A DNA stretch of 64,000 nucleotides, taken from contig JBMNKL010000001.1 in the NCBI GenBank assembly GCA_050952225.1, positions 814,589-878,588 of the forward strand, written 5' to 3'. This document shows positions 1-57,093 of the stretch, one piece after another. Origin of the DNA: Acetivibrionales bacterium (lineage in GTDB: Bacteria > Bacillota > Clostridia > Acetivibrionales > DTU013). The number at the start of each line of letters is the position of its first letter. Positions within the stretch are counted from its first letter, which is position 1. The notes below the pieces were generated by a model that was given only the letters and a program-made list of their open reading frames with translations, searched no databases and was not told where the DNA came from. The position numbers were made by a program, and so were the translations under genes.

Positions 1-816
1 AATATCATAACCGGGTATATTCCTTCAAGTGAAGGCACGGTCAAGGTTTGCGGCTTTGACATCATGGAATCCCCAAAAGAAGTAAAAAAACGCATTGGTT
101 ATCTGCCTGAGCAGCCGCCGGTCTACATGGATATGACGGTCGGCGATTACCTGAACTTTGTTGCGGATTTGAAAATGGTAAGCAAAAAACAGAAGAGAAG
201 CCAGCTGAACGATATAATGGAGCTTGTCAAGATAGGCGACCACAGGAACAGGCTTATTAAAAACCTTTCAAAAGGCTACAAGCAAAGGGTTGGCCTTGCG
301 CAGGCCCTTGTAGGCAGCCCCCAGGTTCTCATACTGGACGAGCCTACGATAGGCCTTGACCCCAGGCAGATTATAGAGATTCGAAAGCTGATCAAGGCTT
401 TGGGGAAGGAACATACGATCATCCTGAGTTCCCACATTCTACCCGAGGTCAGCGCCGTGTGCGACCGTGTTGTTATCATAAACAAGGGCGAAATTGCGGC
501 AATCGACACCCCTGAAAACCTTTCAAAGGGATTGGGTGCCGCATCCAAAATAACCGTGACTATTGCGGGGCCGCGCAGTTCCGTAGAGAATGCGATCAAG
601 GAGATATACGGAGTAAAATTTGTTGAAACCGGAATTGAAAAAGATAAGGAAACATTCTCATATATAATCGAAGCGGATAAGGAAATAGACATAAGAAAAC
701 CATTGTTTTTTGCAATGGCAAAACTGGGTTACCCGATACTTGAATTAAGGGGCGTCAACGCAAGCCTGGAGGATATATTCCTGCAGATAGTCACCCGGGA
801 AAAGGAGGCTGTTTGA
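1..816 (+). CDS. ABC transporter ATP-binding protein (GldA-like), 5' end cut by window edge
   Basis: Frame 1 is open from nt 1 (NIITGYIPSSEGTVKVCGFDIME...), so the ATG at 64 is internal. ABC signature LSKGYKQRV, Walker B LILDEPTIGLD, H-loop SSHIL. Followed by ABC-2 permease and GldG-like genes. Confidence 0.9.
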   Translation, partial: NIITGYIPSSEGTVKVCGFDIMESPKEVKKRIGYLPEQPPVYMDMTVGDYLNFVADLKMVSKKQKRSQLNDIMELVKIGDHRNRLIKNLSKGYKQRVGLAQALVGSPQVLILDEPTIGLDPRQIIEIRKLIKALGKEHTIILSSHILPEVSAVCDRVVIINKGEIAAIDTPENLSKGLGAASKITVTIAGPRSSVENAIKEIYGVKFVETGIEKDKETFSYIIEADKEIDIRKPLFFAMAKLGYPILELRGVNASLEDIFLQIVTREKEAV

Positions 817-819
817 TCA

Positions 820-1533
820 ATGTCGGCGATATTTTGGAAAGAAGTGAAAGCTTATTTTTATTCGCCCATGGCGTATATTCTTATTGGATTATTCATGCTG
901 ATTACTTCGATATATTTTTATCCGAACCTGGTATACGGCCCATACGGCGTGGCAGATTTCAACAACACGCTCTCGATTATGGGTTTTATACTGTTGTTCA
1001 TAGTTCCCGTACTTACGATGAGGATACTTGCCGAAGAGAGGAAAAACGGCACGGAAGTGCTGCTGATTACTTCTCCGGCCAGTATTACCTCAATTGTACT
1101 GGGCAAATACTTTGGGGCATGCTTCGTGTTTTTCGTCATGATATTGCTGTCGTTTATTTACCCGATAGTTTTGCTGGCTTTCGGCGGAACTTTTACCGTT
1201 AAGATTATAGGGGGCTATATCGGCTTCATACTCCTGGGAATGACTTTTATTTCGGTGGGCGTTTTTGCCTCCTCTCTTACGGAAAGCCAAGTGGTTGCAG
1301 TTATTATCAGCTATGTGGCGTTGTTAATCATGTGGATTGCAGACAGCTTGACCACAGTCGTGGGAGGCTTCGCTTCGAAGATTCTAGGGTGGATATCACT
1401 GCTTTCCAGGTACGAGGATTTTAACAGGGGCATACTCGGGATCGGGCCTGTAGTATACTACATGAGCTTTATCGCGGTATTCCTGTTTCTTACGGTCAGG
1501 GTAATCGAAAAAAGACGCTGGAGTCAGGGGTGA
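820..1533 (+). CDS. ABC-2 family transporter permease (GldF-like)
   Basis: 237-aa multi-pass hydrophobic ORF starting 4 nt after the ATPase stop, the usual position of the ABC-2 permease partner. Confidence 0.8.
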   Translation: MSAIFWKEVKAYFYSPMAYILIGLFMLITSIYFYPNLVYGPYGVADFNNTLSIMGFILLFIVPVLTMRILAEERKNGTEVLLITSPASITSIVLGKYFGACFVFFVMILLSFIYPIVLLAFGGTFTVKIIGGYIGFILLGMTFISVGVFASSLTESQVVAVIISYVALLIMWIADSLTTVVGGFASKILGWISLLSRYEDFNRGILGIGPVVYYMSFIAVFLFLTVRVIEKRRWSQG

Positions 1534-1539
1534 TGAGGG

Positions 1540-3003
1540 ATGGAAAAGAAGAATATTATTACCGGCATAAAGAGGTTTTTCAAAAGCAGGAGTTTAAAAT
1601 ACGGTTCAAACGCCGCCATTTTGATTGCAGCCGTTATCGTTATCGCAGTACTGGTGAACATCCTGGTTGGAATGACGGATCTTAAGCTTGATTTGACTCC
1701 GAACAAGCTTTTTTCACTGACGGATGCAACAAGGAACGAATTGAAAAACCTTAAGCATGATGTAGAGATAATCGGGTTGTTTGACGAGGGAAAAATCGCT
1801 TCCGGCAGCGAATATAAGCAAGTCACCGACCTGCTGAGCCTATATGAGAAGTACCCGCGGGTTAAGGTGGAGTATGTAGATCCGGACAAGAATCCCGGCA
1901 TCATTAACCAGCTTGACCCGGACGGCACCATGGATCTGGGCAAAAGCGATTTTGTCGTCAAAAGCGTGGTGAACGGCATTGAAAAGAAAAGAAAACTGGA
2001 ATATTATGACCTTTTTGCCGTGCAGATGGACCAGTATTCGCTGAGAGCATATACAACAGGCTCAAATGCGGAGCAGGGCTTTACCGGGGCCATAAAATAT
2101 GTTACGTCGGAGAATACGCCTGTTGTATACTTTACGGAAGGCCATAACGAAACGGATGTGGATATAGATTACCGGTTCCTGAAAAACCAGATTGAAAAGA
2201 ATAATTTCATCGTTAAAAAGCTGAACCTGCTGTCCGCGGACAAGATACCGGATGACGCCGGGCTGGTTATTGTAGCTTCCCCCAAGAACGACATAACAAT
2301 AAACGAGAAAGATGTGCTCAGCGACTACCTTTACGAAGGCGGAAAGGCCATATTCATGTTTGATTGCCTGGCCAGCGACCCGGACTTTGAACAGTTCAAC
2401 AGCCTGCTTGCCAAGTATAACATAGAGATCAACCATGACAAGGTGATTGAAAATGACGAAAGAAGGCATGTCCCGCAAGATCCGGCTACGCTTATCGTAA
2501 ATATTGATCAAAACAACATCATACCCCAGGGTTTTGTTGCTTTGCTCAGCAATTCCAGGAGTATCGGCATCTTGAAAAATGTCAAGGAATATATCAAGAC
2601 GACAACGCTTATGAAAACCAGCGAGAACGCCGTGGGACAAATGGTAAGCAAATCAAGGGGAGAAGATCTGAAGGGTCCTCTTGATATAGCGGTTGCTGTC
2701 GAATATACCGGGGGAAAGGGTAATTCCAAGATTGTTGTGATAGGCAACGGATCGTTCGTCAGTGACAACGCGATAAATTTCGGAGACTATTTCTACAATA
2801 ATGTTGTTTTCTTCCTGCAGACGATGAACTGGATGATAGACAAGCAGGACGAGGTCATCGTGCCTACAAAAGACTATGAGATAAATACGCTGGATATCAC
2901 ACAGGCGCAAGCCAAGATCATGGGATGGGCTCTCATTGTGGTATTCCCGCTGCTCATACTCGGCACGGGCCTTATGGTATTCTTGAGGAGGCGTCATTTA
3001 TGA
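1540..3003 (+). CDS. GldG-like ABC-transporter auxiliary protein
   Basis: 487 aa with an N-terminal TM (AAILIAAVIVIAVLVNILVG), a C-terminal TM (WALIVVFPLLILGTGLMVFL) and a large domain between. The ATPase-permease-GldG order matches the conserved GldA/F/G-type arrangement. Confidence 0.7.
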   Translation: MEKKNIITGIKRFFKSRSLKYGSNAAILIAAVIVIAVLVNILVGMTDLKLDLTPNKLFSLTDATRNELKNLKHDVEIIGLFDEGKIASGSEYKQVTDLLSLYEKYPRVKVEYVDPDKNPGIINQLDPDGTMDLGKSDFVVKSVVNGIEKKRKLEYYDLFAVQMDQYSLRAYTTGSNAEQGFTGAIKYVTSENTPVVYFTEGHNETDVDIDYRFLKNQIEKNNFIVKKLNLLSADKIPDDAGLVIVASPKNDITINEKDVLSDYLYEGGKAIFMFDCLASDPDFEQFNSLLAKYNIEINHDKVIENDERRHVPQDPATLIVNIDQNNIIPQGFVALLSNSRSIGILKNVKEYIKTTTLMKTSENAVGQMVSKSRGEDLKGPLDIAVAVEYTGGKGNSKIVVIGNGSFVSDNAINFGDYFYNNVVFFLQTMNWMIDKQDEVIVPTKDYEINTLDITQAQAKIMGWALIVVFPLLILGTGLMVFLRRRHL

Positions 3004-4406
3004 AGTTCTACAAGAATGCAATTATTCTTGTTCTTATTGTTGCGCTGCTGGCAGGAGTATATGTCTTTGTCCTCAAAACCAGGCCTGAAAGCGAAGATAA
3101 TACTTCCGACCTGCTCAAGCTGACCGATTATATTTCGAGTGATGTTGAATCCGTGACACTGGAGAACCCGGACGGCACTTTTGTAATTGTCAGGAAGGAC
3201 GATGAATGGGTCCTGTCTTCGCCGTCCGACCTCAAGTATGATTCGTCTGTACTCAGCAGCATAGTAATAAACGCGGCTTCGATTACCGCGGACAGGCTGG
3301 TGGAAGAGAATGCGCAGGATATAGCAAAGTACGGCCTCGACGACCCTGTCATCGTCAGGATGAAAACCAAGGACGGAAAGGAGACCGTGCTTGAAGTAGG
3401 CGACAGGACACCTACAAAAAGCGGTTATTATATCAAGTTTGCCGGTGAAAATGATGTATATATTATCGGCACGTATACCGGCAATTACCTCGTCACGGAC
3501 AGGAACGGCATGCGGTCAAAGCAACTGTTTGATTTTGAACTCGATGACATAAACACGCTGGCGATGAACAGGAAAGGGCAAAAAGTGTTCAGGTCCGTCA
3601 AGGAAGAAAAGGACGACATAAGCAGCTGGAAACTGACGGAACCGATCAAGGGAAGCGTGAATGGAAATGCTATATACCCCATGCTTGAGGCTTTAGCAAA
3701 TACAACAGTGGATGAATTTTTGGAAGATAAGCCGTCGGACCTGGCGCAATACGGCCTGGATGAGCCCGTATATGAATTTGAAATCGGCACTGAAGCGGCA
3801 GGGACTTACAAGCTTCTGATGGGAGACGAGAAGGAAAAGGGCTCGACGATATATGCCAAGCTCGGTAACAGCGACGAGGTGTTTGCCGTGGATATATCGT
3901 CATACAATGCTTTCCTTGACAAACCGCTCAAGGAAATTGTCAGCGTCTTTGTTTACCTTGTCAATATAGACGATGTTAAAAAGATTGATTTAACAATGGA
4001 CGGCAAGACAACCAATATGGTATTGGATATATATAAAGACTCGGAAGGCAATTCAGACAGGGATAAAGACAAATTCTACGTTAACGGGATGGACGCCAGC
4101 GGCAAAAATGAAGACGGCGATCAGCCGTTCAGGAAATTCTACCAGGCCCTCATAGGCATCAGCCTTGACGAGGTGGATGTCGACGGCAGGCCCGAAGGTG
4201 ATGCTGAAATCACCATAAACTACACGTTGAAGGATGGGTCTATGAAAGTAGAATTCATTTCCAAGGATGACAATTACTATTACGTGGTCAGAAACAGTGA
4301 ATATGCAGGCATCCTGGTAAAGAAAAACAAGAAGTCTTTTGGCGTAATGGAAATGAAAGAAGCATACAAAACGCTTATGGATTTCCTGTCGTCACAGCAG
4401 AAATAA
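3000..4406 (+). CDS. DUF4340-like membrane-anchored protein
   Basis: ATG at 3000 overlaps the upstream stop (ATGA). The product starts MKFYKNAIILVLIVALLAGVYVFVL (signal anchor). Proteins of this type normally follow GldG-like genes. The track ORF start at 2925 lies inside the upstream gene. Confidence 0.6.
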   Translation: MKFYKNAIILVLIVALLAGVYVFVLKTRPESEDNTSDLLKLTDYISSDVESVTLENPDGTFVIVRKDDEWVLSSPSDLKYDSSVLSSIVINAASITADRLVEENAQDIAKYGLDDPVIVRMKTKDGKETVLEVGDRTPTKSGYYIKFAGENDVYIIGTYTGNYLVTDRNGMRSKQLFDFELDDINTLAMNRKGQKVFRSVKEEKDDISSWKLTEPIKGSVNGNAIYPMLEALANTTVDEFLEDKPSDLAQYGLDEPVYEFEIGTEAAGTYKLLMGDEKEKGSTIYAKLGNSDEVFAVDISSYNAFLDKPLKEIVSVFVYLVNIDDVKKIDLTMDGKTTNMVLDIYKDSEGNSDRDKDKFYVNGMDASGKNEDGDQPFRKFYQALIGISLDEVDVDGRPEGDAEITINYTLKDGSMKVEFISKDDNYYYVVRNSEYAGILVKKNKKSFGVMEMKEAYKTLMDFLSSQQK

Positions 4407-11312: not shown

Positions 11313-11328
11313 GGATAGGGCGGCTTGC
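11313..11328 (+). repeat. 16-nt motif GGATAGGGCGGCTTGC (copy C of the intergenic repeat family)
   Basis: Identical to 40750-40765 (left inverted repeat of copy B). It starts 5 nt after the ilvB stop and is followed by the perfect palindrome gttggggtcag-g-ctgaccccaac (11335-11357). Confidence 0.7.
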
Positions 11329-13809: not shown

Positions 13810-13968
13810 ACAAATAAATCAAACGGTACCGCAGACAGCAGGTGCGCAAGCATAATCGGGTATCCGGCCTGCCGAGGTAGATAGATGGTTTGTTCCGGCT
13901 AGCCGTTAAGGCATCATGGCGGAGATATCCCTTGTGCGTCTGCAGTATGCGAAGCACAAGGGTTTTTT
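13810..13968 (+). promoter_or_regulatory. Ribosomal protein L10 leader (autoregulatory 5' UTR with terminator)
   Basis: A 280-nt spacer before rplJ, typical of Firmicutes. GC-rich structured segment (ggtaccgcagacagcaggtgcgcaagc...ccggcctgccgagg) ending in the attenuator hairpin cccttgtgc...gcacaaggg + tttttt (13929-13968). The assignment to the L10_leader family is by position and architecture, not by a covariance search. Confidence 0.65.
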
Positions 13969-14030
13969 AATTGCAGGCTGTTTGGCTACATGCTGTCTCG
14001 TGAACGGGATGGACAAAGGAGGTGGAAAAC

Positions 14031-28002: not shown

Positions 28003-28232
28003 GCCCGTCCTCACGCGGGCGCTTGTTATTTGCCATCCGTAACTCAGAACAAGCGTCTCCGGCGTCCATGCCGAAGTATTACGGGTATTCCTCAGGGGTT
28101 CCGCGTTCAAGTTTCACCAGGACAAACACCCTGTAGCCATTCTTCCGTAAAATCTCAAATCTCAAACCGCCCTGCCCGCCAATTCTATCCGCGCTTATCA
28201 TCGCGCGCCTGCACTGTCCGGGGCGATGAGAT
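28003..28232. repeat. Structured intergenic repeat, copy A
   Basis: 28011-28135 is the reverse complement of 40792-40911 at about 90% identity (hand alignment: 11 mismatches and 1 indel over ~120 nt). Homology continues at lower identity to ~28193. The segment 28157-28232 aligns in the SAME orientation with 40962-41024. Confidence 0.8.
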
Positions 28233-30634: not shown

Positions 30635-32070
30635 CCGCGAAAACAGGCAAATGGACGGTTTTATTGCGAATAATGGCTACTTCTGCCGTGAACGTGTATG
30701 CATATGCAGGCATCGTCACTTTACGCACTGCTGTTTTCGGCAGCGACGGCGGCGTCGGGGCAGTACTCCTGTACATTTCGTCTGCCATATTTGCAAACCT
30801 GTCAAGTGCCATGTTTTTAAACAGGATACCGCCTTTTGCGTCCGGCATTTCGAAAACAAGAACCGCCAGGTTTGTGTCATTCATGCTGAATATCAGGGAT
30901 TTCGAGTACTTCGCGGCTAAAACGGCTGCATGGTTGTTGGCCGTTGTACCCCTGGCGTCCGGTATTTTCTTATTTGCAAGACACGGCATTTTAAGGCTCT
31001 TATTTGAATTGCTGCCATTGGCGGCAGCTTACGCTATTTCCCTGAAGCACACAAGGCTGGGCGCTGCCGGAATTATGAGCAGGACAAACGTATTTACCGG
31101 GTTCTTCATACTTTTTTCCGCACTGGTAATTTCAAATATTTCAGGCGGGTTGAAACATTTAAGGCCCTGGCTTAAGGGGGCCGCTTATTTCTTTATCCTG
31201 GCCTACCTTATCATAAGGAACCAGGAGGACATAGATGTAAATATATTCAACAAGAAGCATGTCGAAAAGTCAATATTGCCGAAGAACATGAGGCGCTTTA
31301 ACATGATGTCTGTCTGCACGGTATTCCTTATAATCCTGCTGATATCAAACTTTAAGGAGATAATCGCGTCTGTTGCCGGCTTGCTTGGCAGGGTGACTGT
31401 TTATGCGGTATATGCGGTATTATGGATACTTGACTTTTTTATTTCCAAACTCAGCACTATCCGGGAAGCCGATGCACCGGCACAGGATAACTTACTTCTT
31501 GTTTTCGAGGGTATATCGCCGACAGGTAATTTTGTTTTTAATGTTTTAAGAAATTTCACTGTTTTATATATTATATACAGGATACTTTTCGGATTGGCAG
31601 GAAGAATTCCTGCATATGTGCGTAATATTGCAGGATTGGTGGCGAAATTGCTGTCACTGGATAAGGGCGCCAAACCAAGCGAAGAATCCGATTATATCGA
31701 CGAGTCGGAAACAGTTAAGCCTGAATGGCTCCGGGTGCATTTCAAAACTGCGGTGAAAAAGCAGCGGAGAGCAAGGAAAAAGCTAAAGGGCATAACGGAC
31801 CCGGTGGAAAAAGTCAGGCGCATGTATGCCATTGTACTCGACATGCTGCAAAATTCCGGAATAAAGACGGAGCCCTGTGATACTACGCTTGACATATTGC
31901 AAAAGGCGGCGCCGCTTGAAAACATCCGGGAAGAGCTGTCGGCCCTGACAGATGTATACAACTGCGTACGTTACGGCGGGGTGGTTCCGGGAGAGGAAAT
32001 GATGTCGGAAGCCCTGGGTTGTTACGCAAAGACCGTCAGGGGATTCGGCTTCACAGCCGAAGATGCTTAG
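30631..32070 (+). CDS. Polytopic membrane protein with DUF4129-like C-terminal domain
   Basis: ATG 30631 overlaps the DUF58 stop (ATGA). There are 8 or more hydrophobic helices, then a soluble C-terminus ([33 protein letters not shown]...VYNCVRYGG) of the type found in the third gene of MoxR-DUF58 clusters. No transglutaminase Cys-His-Asp core was seen. Confidence 0.6.
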
Positions 32071-32085
32071 CAAGCCGCCCTGTCC
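32070..32085 (-). repeat. 16-nt motif (reverse orientation, copy D): gcaagccgccctgtcc
   Basis: 15 of 16 identical to the right inverted repeat of copy B (40968-40983, gcaagccgccctatcc). It overlaps the last base of the stop codon of the DUF4129-like gene. Confidence 0.6.
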
Positions 32086-39303: not shown

Positions 39304-40599
39304 TTAAAACGGGTATTCCTTATCAAGTTTTCTGTGCTTGAATGTTTTTTTCTTTTCAGCATAATCAGCAACGATGTGGCCGTCTCCTACCAGGCTGTAC
39401 TTATAAGTGACCAGGCCTTCAAGGCCTACAGGGCCCCTTGCATGGAGCTTCCCCGTGCTGATGCCTACCTCGGCTCCAAGACCGTATCTATATCCGTCAC
39501 TGAAACGTGTCGAACAGTTCCAAAAAACATTGCCGGAATCGACCAGTGCCATGAACTTTGCGGCATGTTCCCTGTCGCCGGTGACGATGGAATCCGTGTG
39601 GCCGGAGCCATACTCATTGATGTGATCTATAGCCTCGTCTATACTGCCGACTATTTTGACGGACAGCCTGTAATCCAGGTATTCTTTTCTCCAATCTTCC
39701 TCGGTTGCTGCCTTGACAGGTATAAAAGAAACCGTTTCACTGCAGCCCAGGAGTTCAACATGTTTCTCGTCGGCTGCTTCTTTTAGAATCGGTAAAAATG
39801 CCGGGGCTATTTTCCTGTGGACAAGAAGGGTTTCCAGCGCATTGCAGACAGCCACATATTGGACTTTTGAGTCAATGGCAATTTTCAGCGCCATACGAAG
39901 ATCAGCATAATCATCGATATACAGGTGGCATATTCCGTCGGCATGTCCCATGACCGGGATATTCGAGTGGTCCATTATATACCTGACAAAGTCGTTCGAA
40001 CCTCTTGGGATTATTAAGTCTACGTATTCATGCTGTTTCAGGAGCTCGTCTATTTCCGCCCTTGTTTCCAGCAGCGCGCACCAGCCTGCCGGAATGCAGG
40101 AAGATTCGGACGCAGATACTATCAGGTCCGATAATATCCTGTTTGTCCGCCTGGCTTCGGAGCCTCCCTTCAAAATCACACCGTTGCCGCTTTTCAGGCA
40201 AAGCGTTGAAATCTGTACCAGGGCGTCCGGCCTGGATTCAAATATTACGCCGATGACGCCTATCGGGCATGTGACCTTATAAAGCTCAAGGCAATCGTCC
40301 AACACGGTGCAAGACATTGTTTTTCCGACCGGATCATCGAGCTTTGCCAGGCTGTGAATCCCTTCGATAGTATCGTTTAGCTTCCGTTCATCAAATTTAA
40401 GCCTTTTCAGCAACGGTTCGGGAATGTTTTCAGCCTCGCTCCTGGTAAGGTCTTCATTGTTTGCTTCAAATATCTTGTCTTTATTGGAAAGCAACGCTTC
40501 AGCTATATTCATGAGTGCCTTGTTCTTCTTGTCACCATGTACCATGGCTAACTTTAACGATGCCGACTTTACCCGTTTACAGGTCTCGCCGGTATTCAT
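39304..40599 (-). CDS. proA: Gamma-glutamyl phosphate reductase
   Basis: MNTGETCKRVKSASLKLAMV... with GVIFESRPDALVQI and NALETLLVH motifs. RBS GGGGTGA. The track ORF extends 24 codons upstream into the promoter. Confidence 0.93.
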   Translation of the reverse strand: MNTGETCKRVKSASLKLAMVHGDKKNKALMNIAEALLSNKDKIFEANNEDLTRSEAENIPEPLLKRLKFDERKLNDTIEGIHSLAKLDDPVGKTMSCTVLDDCLELYKVTCPIGVIGVIFESRPDALVQISTLCLKSGNGVILKGGSEARRTNRILSDLIVSASESSCIPAGWCALLETRAEIDELLKQHEYVDLIIPRGSNDFVRYIMDHSNIPVMGHADGICHLYIDDYADLRMALKIAIDSKVQYVAVCNALETLLVHRKIAPAFLPILKEAADEKHVELLGCSETVSFIPVKAATEEDWRKEYLDYRLSVKIVGSIDEAIDHINEYGSGHTDSIVTGDREHAAKFMALVDSGNVFWNCSTRFSDGYRYGLGAEVGISTGKLHARGPVGLEGLVTYKYSLVGDGHIVADYAEKKKTFKHRKLDKEYPF

Positions 40600-40647
40600 G
40601 AAAATCACCCCGACTTGCAATGTACTGCCTGAACTATGTATTTTCAA

Positions 40648-40676
40648 AGTATACCAGAAAGGTATGCGCAATGCAA
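40648..40676 (-). promoter_or_regulatory. Sigma-A promoter for proA
   Basis: On the minus strand: TTGCAT - 17 nt - TATACT, about 45 nt upstream of the proA ATG. Confidence 0.55.
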
Positions 40677-40745
40677 TTATTTACTAGAAAAAGATACTAT
40701 AGGGAAGAGTTGCAAAAGGAAGAGCGGCCATGGCACAAATATGAC

Positions 40746-41024
40746 AGCGGATAGGGCGGCTTGCAATTTGACATTTTGTGGAGGAGTGCCTGCAGGGTGT
40801 TATGTCCTGGTGAAACTTGAACGCGGAACCCTTAAAGAATACCCGTAATACTTCGGCATGGATGCCGAAGTCGCTTGTCCTGAGCTACGGATGGCGAATG
40901 TCAAGCGCCCGTGTCGAAGTGATACGGGACATTACAGCCTGCCCATGTCGGAAACTAATGGCAAATTGCAAGCCGCCCTATCCGTTGAATTATAGCGCGC
41001 CTGCGCCGTCCGTGGCGCAGGCTG
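40746..41024. repeat. Structured intergenic repeat, copy B (MITE-like, long imperfect palindrome)
   Basis: Perfect 23-bp inverted repeats cggatagggcggcttgcaatttg (40748-40770) and caaattgcaagccgccctatccg (40962-40984) bracket 191 bp. The interior has further long-range complementarity (tgttatgtcc/ggacattaca; cccgtaatacttcggc/gtcgaagtgatacggg) and a local hairpin acttcggca-tgga-tgccgaagt. It is homologous to copy A. Confidence 0.85.
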
Positions 41025-41099
41025 TGGCTCCTGACAGGTCTTTTCATCCGATGCCTTGACCCGCATCCGCCACAAGCCGACTTATCCGCTTATCTTGTC

Positions 41100-43217
41100 T
41101 TAGTAAATGGTACGGCCCTTTTCATCGGGGATGCCGCTTTTCCTGTAAAAGTAAGTATTTATTACATCGCGCCACTCACATGCATGCGCTGCCTGTTTAT
41201 TGAGCCGCTCCAGTACGCGCTCGTAACACCCGTCGGGTATACGGTTTTTCAAGCTTTTCCATTTCTCCACCAACTCTGCTGCCCTTTCAGCGCCTTCAAA
41301 ATGGGAGTCATAAATGTACTGTATCAGCGTAACACCGGATTTTAGACGGTAATTATAAGGGATGCGGTGGAAAAACAACAGGAGTTCTTCCGGACAGGTT
41401 TCAGGCGTTTCATACATTTTTGCGATCTGCGGGTGATACCTGCCGGCGAAGCCGGTACCGCTGGAAACCGACCGGTCTATGCCGATAGCATGACAATCAG
41501 CCCTGTGATAGGTACCCCAGGAGGAATATTCGTATCCGTCCACATTAGGCCCGTAATGGCTTCCGGGATTGACCATCCATCCGATGCCAAGCGGCGATGT
41601 ATAACTCTCATATATATGGTATGAATCCAGCAGCATGGTGCGGATTGTATCCATTACATGACTGTCGGAACCGAAGGTCTGCATGATCCATTCAGTGGCT
41701 ATATCGGACGCGCTGAGGTCCGGGTTCCAGGCAAGCCTTCCGAAACAATAGAAATTTGCCTGTGCCAGGTCGTGCCCTGTCCAGTTAAGGTTGCTCCCGA
41801 CATTGGAAACACATGCGATTCCTGAGATTCTTCCGATGTTTTTGGCATCTCTGAGAATTTTCTTTACCGTTGATCCCTCGCCGTCTTTCCATGTGTCAAA
41901 TTCCAGCACGTCCTTCCACATTTGACACAGGTAGCATAGATGTATCTGTTGGCCGGTGTATTCCTGGGTTGACTGCAGTTCAAGCATAATGTTGGTTTTC
42001 CGCAAACCGCCGATGAGAGGAGACACGGGTTCCCTTACCTGGAAGTCCATGGGGCCGTTTTTGATCTGGAGAATGACATTATCCTCGAAGAGGCCGTCCA
42101 GCGGCATAAAATTATCATAGGCGGCATTAGCCCTGTCAATGCTTCGGTCTCTCCAATCCTGTCTGCAGTTGTAGACAAAGCAGCGCCAAATCACCAATCC
42201 GCCATGCGGCTTCAGGACGGATGCCAGCATGTTGGCTCCCTCGGCATGATTTCTGCCGTAAGTAAGCGGGCCGGGGCGAAATTCGGAATCAGCCTTTACA
42301 AGAAACCCTCCGAAGTCGGGAATATACGAGTATATCTCGGTTGCTTTGGCACGCCACCACTCCTGTACCTCTTTATCGGAAGGATCTGCTGTTTCCAGCC
42401 CTCCCAATTCGATAGGGCTTGAAAAATTTATGCTAAGATACGTTTTAATTCCGTAACAGCGGAATAAATCCGCAATTCTTGCGATTTTAGGCAAGTACTC
42501 CTTTGAAATAATCCTTGTTTCCAGAGCAGTGAAATTGACATTATTAATCACAACACCGTTTAAACCGATTGATGCGGTAAGCCTGGCATAATCACGCAGC
42601 CTTGATAAGTCGGTAACAACCCTGCCGTTGCTGAAAAAAATCGACCTGCCCGCATATCCTCTTTCCACACTGCCGTCCAAATTGTCCCAGTGATTGAGCA
42701 TACGAATCGGCATGGCAGGGTTTTCAATCACACGAATATTGTCTGTAAACCCGCCGCACTGCAATATCCGGGCAAGTCCGAACACACCATAAAGTATGCC
42801 TGTGCCGGATTTTCCCGCAATTACAAGATTCCGGCCGGCGCCGTTATTAACAAATTTTATCAGGTAGCCTTCATTCCCCAGCATATTTTTCTCTTCGTCA
42901 GATACCGCGTCCGAGAGAAACCGGCCAATAGACGGCTGCTTGTAATGCAATCCATTCCTGTGGGGATTGTCGGCAATTAAGTAAAGTATGACAACGCCTT
43001 TCGACATAGGGTTCGTGACCTGGCGCATTCTCTTGCCAAACAAGGACTTTACGGCGCTCTTAAGCTCCTGTTTTGCCGTTGAAAGCTGTTGATCCGACGG
43101 ATCATTTATGAAAACATTCTGGAAATAGGGCAAGTAACACTTAGCCTTTTCCTGGTCAATAGCAGGATATCCAAGCCATGCAAAGTAGCCGCTGTCGTAT
43201 AAACCTGAGTTTCTCAT
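41100..43217 (-). CDS. aguA: Alpha-glucuronidase, glycoside hydrolase family 67
   Basis: 705 aa with [21 protein letters not shown] and overall GH67 architecture. ATG 43217 follows GAGGAG. The track start is a GTG inside the RBS. Confidence 0.88.
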
Positions 43218-43363
43218 TAAGCTCCTCACTTGCTCTTAGTATTAAGTTATTAAATCTCTTAACTCATTTCCTAATTATACTTATTATCAGGCCTTGTAAC
43301 ATGGAGCAAGAAAGATTTATTTGTAAATATCAAGGCGTATTCGGGTCAAAACCATGGAACATG

Positions 43364-56781: not shown

Positions 56782-56844
56782 ATCTATGTATTTTCTGATT
56801 TAATAGCTCTATGCGAATAATTATAAGACTGTTGTCTTAAAATT

Positions 56845-56992
56845 AGAGCGCCGAATTCTATAAGAAGTGGGGGAACCAATTTTGGGGTGAATCATTCCCG
56901 GGCGCTGCGATCTAATAATGCTGTTGCCCGGGGGGTGTAGGGTTACCTCTTCAGCCCAAACCCGTCAGCTAACCTCACAGGCGTAGGAGAGG
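56845..56992 (+). promoter_or_regulatory. c-di-AMP riboswitch (ydaO-yuaA class) aptamer
   Basis: Contains the hallmark blocks GCGCCGAAUUC...GUGGGGGAACCAAUUUUGGGGUGAAUC...GUAGGGUUACCU...CCCAAACCCGUCAGCUAACCUCACAGGCGUAGGAGAGGAG. P1 pairs gcgcc (56848-52) with ggcgt (56980-84). The block order matches my recollection of the B. subtilis ydaO and Thermoanaerobacter c-di-AMP aptamers. Confidence 0.82.
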
Positions 56993-57093
56993 AGATCATA
57001 GGCTGTCTATATGCCTGCAATTTTAGGTCATATATGATGTATGTTTATTTTAGCGTAAAGAAGGCTATGGTTCTCCTGTAGTCTTTTTTATTT
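56985..57093 (+). terminator. Riboswitch expression platform (interrupted terminator stem + U-run)
   Basis: aggaga (56985-90) and catag (56997-57001) pair with ctatg (57065-69) and tctcct (57072-77), followed by gtagtcttttttattt. The enclosed ~60 nt is unusually long for a terminator loop. Confidence 0.5.

Follow-up and report, generated by a model that had tools for sequence, protein, structure and literature searches.

The Csr/Rsm sRNAs (CsrB, RsmY/Z, and RsmW) carry GGA motifs in hairpin loops; CsrA dimers bridge two sites, and CsrB or RsmZ offers far more GGA sites than two. The established CsrA antagonist in Firmicutes is the protein FliW rather than an sRNA, and we know of no CsrA-titrating sRNA validated in Firmicutes, Clostridia included. 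Also comparable are the small, non-coding, dispersed repeats that combine terminal inverted repeats, a long-hairpin fold, and insertion polymorphism (MITEs and the Correia, ERIC, BOX, and RUP elements), which the locus described here appears to resemble in general organization. The closest described system is TwoAYGGAY (RF01731), a multicopy RNA class of Clostridia that is not cis-regulatory and that has two adjacent terminal hairpins with AYGGAY loops. The supplement to the paper of its discoverers describes a “very large” closing helix P1, e.g., 24 bp with 2 mismatches (Weinberg et al. 2010, PMC2864571); its tandem G·A feature was noted in the RMfam work, in which TwoAYGGAY was proposed, as “work in progress,” to be a CsrA-binding sRNA of Clostridia (PMC4333381). 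TwoAYGGAY and RsmW belong to the same Rfam clan, CL00106, and the consensus for Rsm/CsrA (RsmE) sites is A/U-CANGGANG-U/A (PMC6849547).

The locus analyzed here, copy B, lies in a 64-kb stretch of DNA (the window) from a Clostridia MAG of the order Acetivibrionales, matching the Clostridia range proposed for TwoAYGGAY. It is a real, diverged, subthreshold variant of this known and functionally orphan class and not a new kind of element. A sequence-only reading of the locus had described a MITE-like element with perfect terminal inverted repeats but had missed its diagnostic feature, the two AYGGAY hairpin loops that place it in the TwoAYGGAY class.

The inverted repeat itself is exact: CGGATAGGGCGGCTTGCAATTTG at 40748-40770 has its reverse complement at 40962-40984, with 0 mismatches in each and 191 nt between them, and it had 0 matches in 100 shuffles. 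This 23-nt core grows to 31 nt at 94% complementarity (plus strand, 40745-40775 with 40957-40987), forming the two arms of P1, which close a 243-nt hairpin at 40745-40987; the fold of the region stands well apart from those of shuffled sequences (z = −9.3, the same for both strands). With 31 nt and 2 mismatches, the closing P1 of copy B is very large, as in TwoAYGGAY. Inside it on the plus strand lie helix H2 (40792-40809 with 40925-40942; 16 pairs, 12 of them with compensatory double changes) and helix H3 (40815-40826 with 40909-40920; 11 pairs, 6 with double changes, 96.6% of cells paired), which closes a three-way junction; the 3′ strands of H3 and H2 together span 40909-40942 and are supported by the alignment. 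The pairing of 40799-40808 with 40926-40935 proposed in the sequence-only reading, with 8 Watson-Crick pairs and 1 G-U pair of 10, falls within the covariation-supported H2. A single-stranded junction, AACCCUUAAAGAAUACCCGUAAU (40827-40849, plus strand), is kept in close copies, partly kept in locus L113, and shortened in locus L103.

The tip of the structure consists of two hairpins on the plus strand. Hairpin 1 (40850-40871), the central hairpin already seen from the letters, has 10-nt arms that are 100% complementary and, in the alignment, 8 pairs, 4 with double changes; its loop is AUGGAU (40858-40863, GGA at 40860-40862), the segment GCAUGGA-GC is invariant in 8/8 aligned sequences, and the hairpin corresponds to positions 49 to 72 of the TwoAYGGAY model. 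Hairpin 2 (40872-40907), supported by the same alignment, has a lower stem, then a tandem G·A internal loop, CUGA/GAAU, at 40880-40883 and 40896-40899, and the tip GCUA-CGGA-UGGC, with the loop A-CGGA-U at 40887-40892 and GGA at 40889-40891. Its 3′ strand is what had been taken for a third, degenerate copy of the terminal repeat at 40893-40912, a weak gapped match; the true third arm copy lies farther out, at 41072-41090. A further proposed pairing, 40841-40856 with 40913-40928, amounts to 3/16 rather than 15/16 positions in that register and to about 12/16 when shifted by one base (read by hand); it was rejected, being off register, not conserved in other copies, and in competition with hairpin 1.

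We evaluated the structure with an alignment (A3) of eight sequences whose core identity ranges from 54 to 95%. It holds 50 pairs in six helices, with 92.9% of cells paired, and compensatory double changes occur in 28 of the 50 pairs, compared with 11.7 ± 2.2 in shuffles (0 of 500 shuffles reached 28) and with only 3 to 9 pairs in a slid-partner control. The structure is thus kept by covariation across sequences that are only 54 to 70% identical, while the stems vary in sequence and both AYGGAY loops are invariant or nearly so across the eight homologues (conserved segments GCAUGGAYGC and GAGC.A.GGAUGG.GAAU). The strand bearing the AYGGAY loops is more stable than its antisense in 11 of 13 elements; the evidence on strand is nevertheless modest, alignment A3 having 16 G-U against 10 A-C cells (counted by hand from the pair table). 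A coding reading of the overlapping ORFs (80 and 45 amino acids [aa]) was dropped because substitutions follow base pairing, and a tRNA/tmRNA scan found none.

A whole-window Rfam scan at gathering thresholds returned no TwoAYGGAY; it returned only a c-di-AMP riboswitch (56839-56998, plus strand, 98.4 bits) and a ribosomal protein L10 leader (13811-13978, plus strand, 57.8 bits). The family link emerged in E-value mode only, on the same strand as the AYGGAY loops and over the two-hairpin core alone, with scores that all lie below the RF01731 gathering score of 43 bits: 29.1 bits for copy B (E = 0.018), 24.2 for its paralogue copy A, and, among relatives, 35.1 for L010, 34.2 for L007, 31.2 for L008, and 37.8 for L103. 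The copy B group differs from TwoAYGGAY as described in its two extra covarying helices, H2 and H3, in a 23-nt junction, AACCC..AAUACCCGUAAU, that is conserved and separates P1 from the hairpins, and, in copy B, in a second loop that reads ACGGAU and not AUGGAU. The shared features are the paired AYGGAY hairpins, the tandem G·A pairs of the second hairpin (GAGCC..GGCGA is common to canonical members), and the occurrence in multiple copies in Clostridia. Locus L132 passes RF01731 (58 bits) and matches R1 (79 bits), a covariance model built in this analysis, along the whole of that model, and it therefore links the copy B subfamily to the curated family; L088 scores 57.7 bits with RF01731 and 43.3 with R1.

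R1 gives 202 bits to copy B and 104.8 to copy A. Among the sequences collected and the matches listed, only eleven are full-length R1 matches (copy B, copy A, the copies in the related Bacillota MAG103 [JBLNDI01], L113, L103, L070, L105, and L132), and the remaining R1 matches listed cover the two-hairpin core only. A metagenome scan with a pattern of two loops in tandem-G·A context (CATGGAYG..GAGYYAYGGATGGYRA) found at least 120 loci, and the hairpin 2 motif GAGCCAYGGAUGGCGA, common to canonical members, recurs in at least 120 metagenome loci. The matches listed include a human-gut cluster of 64 sequences at 105 to 145 bits with RF01731, a soil cluster, and four singletons (L103, L113, L105, and L070) that are full-length homologues of copy B. 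Long outer stems, unrelated in sequence, occur in L007, L008, L010, L113, L070, and L043, the last a canonical gut copy with an outer stem of 41 nt at 93%.

Several arrangements of these wider relatives were observed. The gut and soil elements often form inverted pairs at most a few hundred nucleotides apart (L043, L052, L114, L137, L139, L108, L097, and L127), as in the oppositely oriented pair at 2919-3086 (minus strand) and 3374-3543 (plus strand) of L043. In the soil cluster (L052, L057, and related loci), a second conserved palindrome, ctttctttggttactttctttg ... caaagaaagtaactcgcc, follows the TwoAYGGAY core by about 100 nt.

In the window, copy B lies between two minus-strand genes, those for an aldehyde dehydrogenase (Aldedh; 39304-40671) and a GH67 alpha-glucuronidase (41100-43229), and the ten neighboring ORFs scanned either carry housekeeping Pfam domains or match no Pfam family. 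In MAG103 the gene order PBP, amino-acid kinase, GH67, Aldedh, MecA is preserved, and the GH67-Aldedh spacer measures 86 nt; that of an outgroup (L173; GH67 65% identical) measures 129 nt. The orthologous site is empty in MAG103 (L170), in L171, and in the outgroup, R1 finds no match over L170 to L173, and the short spacer is, per the outgroup, ancestral. Alignment A5 with L170 and L171 delimits the inserted block, an approximately 412-nt nested palindrome (40682-41097; no strand applies), which reaches from just past the stop codon of GH67 to a few bases upstream of the conserved promoter of Aldedh. The empty sites, a check for mobility that came out positive, thus support the MITE-like description in part, while the unit of presence and absence is larger than the hairpin, whose long irregular fold stands as described. 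Taken as a whole, the block forms a single nested palindrome when folded (z = −7.4 for a 438-nt fold).

An 18-nt inverted repeat marks the ends of the block (40679-40696 with 41091-41108). Its ends form an inverted and not a direct repeat, and comparison of its junctions with the empty site (alignment A5) reveals no clean target-site duplication, the best direct repeat being about 5/8 (read by hand). Within its right side lie a GC-rich side hairpin, GCCTGCGCC-GTCCGT-GGCGCAGGC (40999-41022, plus strand), and an outer right layer (41042-41090, plus strand) composed of the conserved segment TTTCATCCGATGCCTTGACCCGCATCCGC, which has a 90% match to positions 6040-6068 of L010, and then the degenerate third arm copy. 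The outer right layer pairs with 40676-40740 in the 438-nt fold, the outer layer as a whole resembles diverged arms, and some of its pieces recur beside other copies. The GC-rich module is also found next to the arms in L010, copy A, and L003, on the other side there, which would fit outer layers that were symmetric at one time. The GC-rich hairpin is followed by a GCGCGC-TATAAT-like sequence; this combination lies 3′ of the arms in copy B and 5′ of them in L010 (5613-5644), copy A, and L003. The TATAAT beside the 3′ arm was rejected as a promoter, as it is on the antisense strand, has no −35 element, and varies in position between copies. The Aldedh promoter-like sequence at 40648-40676 (minus strand; TTGCAT, 17 nt, TGgTATACT) is kept in MAG103, with the −10 element also in the outgroup, and the 412-nt block ends only about 6 to 10 nt upstream of its −35 element.

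Copy B is repeated as the sequence-only reading had supposed. The paralogue copy A (28013-28195, minus strand; 85% identity over 168 nt) keeps the 5′ arm and the core, its 3′ half and 3′ arm being lost or replaced, and its fold is no better than those of shuffles (z = −0.6). A pattern scan of species-representative genomes found at least four copies in one related MAG, MAG103, 86 to 90% identical to copy B and in unrelated flanks, and at least six copies in two Acetivibrionales genomes adjoin unrelated genes. The neighbors are heterogeneous: YchF, a LysM-GH18 protein, cytidine deaminase, a phosphoglucomutase-family (GlmM-like) protein, SpoVR, a GGDEF protein, and a DinB-type polymerase. In an extended flank alignment of four copies, homology outside the approximately 240-nt hairpin is patchy, the flanks are not conserved between copies, and no common ends could be defined.

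At the site downstream of tuf, the window has copy A, with its 5′ arm and core; MAG103 has only a scar (about 4290-4480 of L165), in which a piece of an arm abuts a piece from the 3′ part; and L169 (1366-1590) has nothing. These three states form a decay series at one orthologous site. As filled, scarred, and empty sites occur there, copies have been gained and lost, and the 3′ loss in copy A together with the scar in MAG103 makes individual copies dispensable. Solo P1-arm motifs, GGATAGGGCGGCTTGC, occur in the window at 11313-11328 (plus strand, 0 mismatches), 32070-32085 (minus strand, 1 mismatch), and 41072-41090 (minus strand, 3 mismatches), the first two abutting the ends of ORFs; as with the MAG103 scar downstream of tuf, these motifs may be what is left of elements since lost. 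Locus L003 (1-152; MAG103 contig JBLNDI010000005) begins inside a copy, apparently at the contig end, and assemblies often break at repeats.

A first alternative is that copy B is a true MITE, a nonautonomous DNA transposon whose inverted repeats are recognized by a transposase encoded elsewhere and whose RNA fold is a by-product. The dispersed copies in both orientations, the clean presence/absence polymorphism with an ancestral short spacer, the inverted repeats at the block ends, the decaying copies and scars, and the MAG contig that ends inside a copy are all consistent with it, as is one family copy, in L113, that adjoins an HTH_Tnp_2 ORF (746-1261, plus strand; about 320 nt from the full-length copy, which may be a coincidence). 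The arms speak otherwise, however. The cores of copies are 91 to 95% identical and the arms differ, both arms changing together: L007 has two substitutions mirrored in both arms, in L010 a 12-nt insertion in one arm is matched by one in the other, and L008 has a different, unrelated terminal arm (GGTGGGCATGG...) that is still paired; distant members have wholly different stems. Because the arms vary jointly, they point to pairing, rather than a sequence bound by a transposase, as the object of selection, and the view of the terminal repeats as transposase sites, the other half of the MITE-like description, is not supported, arm sequence being unconserved. The interior, too, is more than spacer: invariant or nearly invariant loops and 28 covarying pairs are unlike transposon filler.

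Identity among copies within and between genomes is 85 to 93%, near the approximately 88% of the orthologous flank (read by eye from alignment A5), which argues against a recent burst. A blastn search with the element found no match in 72,556 plasmid or 50,697 phage records, and no cognate IS was found there. Copy B thus differs from MITEs and from Correia, ERIC, BOX, and RUP elements in lacking a clear target-site duplication, in arm sequence that varies between copies, in an interior under structural selection, and in that no partner transposase was found nearby. The element behaves as an insertion and yet is not a classical MITE, and we regard the MITE account as unlikely.

A second alternative is that copy B is a repeat of the REP/ERIC/BOX type acting in cis within neighboring mRNAs, as a stabilizer, RNase III site, terminator, or insulator, and is no decoy. 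The copies are intergenic and near gene ends, copy B beginning only a few bases from the GH67 stop; those in L007, L008, L105, and L132 lie 75 to 155 nt from a co-oriented gene; and a consensus scan predicted no promoter of its own for copy B, with neither a sigma-70-type promoter nor an intrinsic terminator bounding the element. A long near-perfect duplex such as the 31-bp P1 is, moreover, a plausible RNase III substrate. A purely cis-acting role is harder to reconcile with the mixed orientation of the copies, since the AYGGAY strand of copies B, A, and L010 coincides with that of neither flanking gene, or with the consistently greater stability of the sense strand; strict GGA loops and tandem G·A pairs would not be needed for a simple stabilizer or terminator. 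We consider this alternative improbable.

Instead, we favor, with a probability of roughly 0.55, the reading that copy B is a diverged TwoAYGGAY element, dispersed and multicopy, that serves as a decoy RNA for a CsrA-type protein. Both loops fit the Rsm/CsrA consensus with their closing pairs included, as CA[UGGA]UG and UA[CGGA]UG. By analogy with the Csr/Rsm sRNAs, a plus-strand transcript would offer a CsrA-family dimer two GGA hairpins, separated by 29 nt, as a two-site clamp, and such a clamp may act as a small decoy, with one CsrA dimer held at two sites on a rod-like scaffold; the long P1 would hold the tip together or serve as an RNase III processing site. Copy B resembles the Csr/Rsm sRNAs in having GGA motifs in hairpin loops that fit CANGGANG and differs from them in having only two GGA sites, on a long rod-like stem, and in occurring in Clostridia. 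A tblastn search of the 64-kb window with an approximate Bacillus subtilis CsrA query found no csrA-like ORF. That result weighs against the decoy reading, as do the lack of a predicted promoter or terminator at the element, the subthreshold Rfam scores, the small number of GGA sites, the part played by FliW in Firmicutes, the dispensability of individual copies, and the modest strand evidence.

The structured RNA might instead have a partner other than CsrA, a phage or defense protein or another RNA, with its likeness to CsrA sites being coincidental. Canonical TwoAYGGAY elements do occur in viral or prophage contigs beside C4 antisense RNA, copies often form close inverted pairs, and the CsrA idea is itself still only a proposal (PMC4333381). 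On the other hand, the loops fit CANGGANG closely, closing pairs included; Rfam groups TwoAYGGAY with Rsm RNAs; and some related loci have CsrB-like arrays of the same hairpin. A non-CsrA partner therefore seems to us a real though rather unlikely possibility. As to the viral contigs, the IMG/VR contig L011 has, about 650 nt apart, a canonical TwoAYGGAY (58.9 bits) and a C4 antisense RNA (78.7 bits), the pair occupying 452-571 and 1227-1313, and about fourteen viral-contig matches carry essentially the same TwoAYGGAY locus, judging by their printed flanks; these shared flanks suggest a phage or prophage association of a proteobacterial-looking TwoAYGGAY branch. A scan of viral contigs for the junction pattern AAACTTGAACGC..CCCGTAATA gave no match. 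Tandem arrays of several AYGGAY hairpins, CsrB/RsmZ-like in layout, were seen in L117 (about 1270-1540), L141, and L046, and L117 also has a subthreshold match (32 bits) to RsmW, of the same Rfam clan as TwoAYGGAY.

Extending the decoy reading further, one may speculate that TwoAYGGAY-type elements are self-spreading CsrA-decoy palindromes, which enter intergenic DNA without target duplication or a transposase of their own and supply the missing sRNA antagonists of CsrA in Clostridia. We hold this to be very improbable; if it were true, every insertion would bring in a further two-site clamp for CsrA, a mobile means of retuning the regulon, and phages could use the elements too, with canonical copies sitting in prophage contigs.

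TwoAYGGAY has been an orphan motif since 2010. The copy B locus adds to it a diverged subfamily that the Rfam threshold misses and that has extra covarying helices, and its filled, empty, and scarred orthologous sites provide direct comparative evidence of elements that come and go like mobile DNA. A 58-nt two-hairpin fragment (40850-40907) makes the putative binding of CsrA directly testable. Should CsrA binding fail, it would still be the case that some “MITE-like” palindromes are selected RNA structures and not transposon ends.
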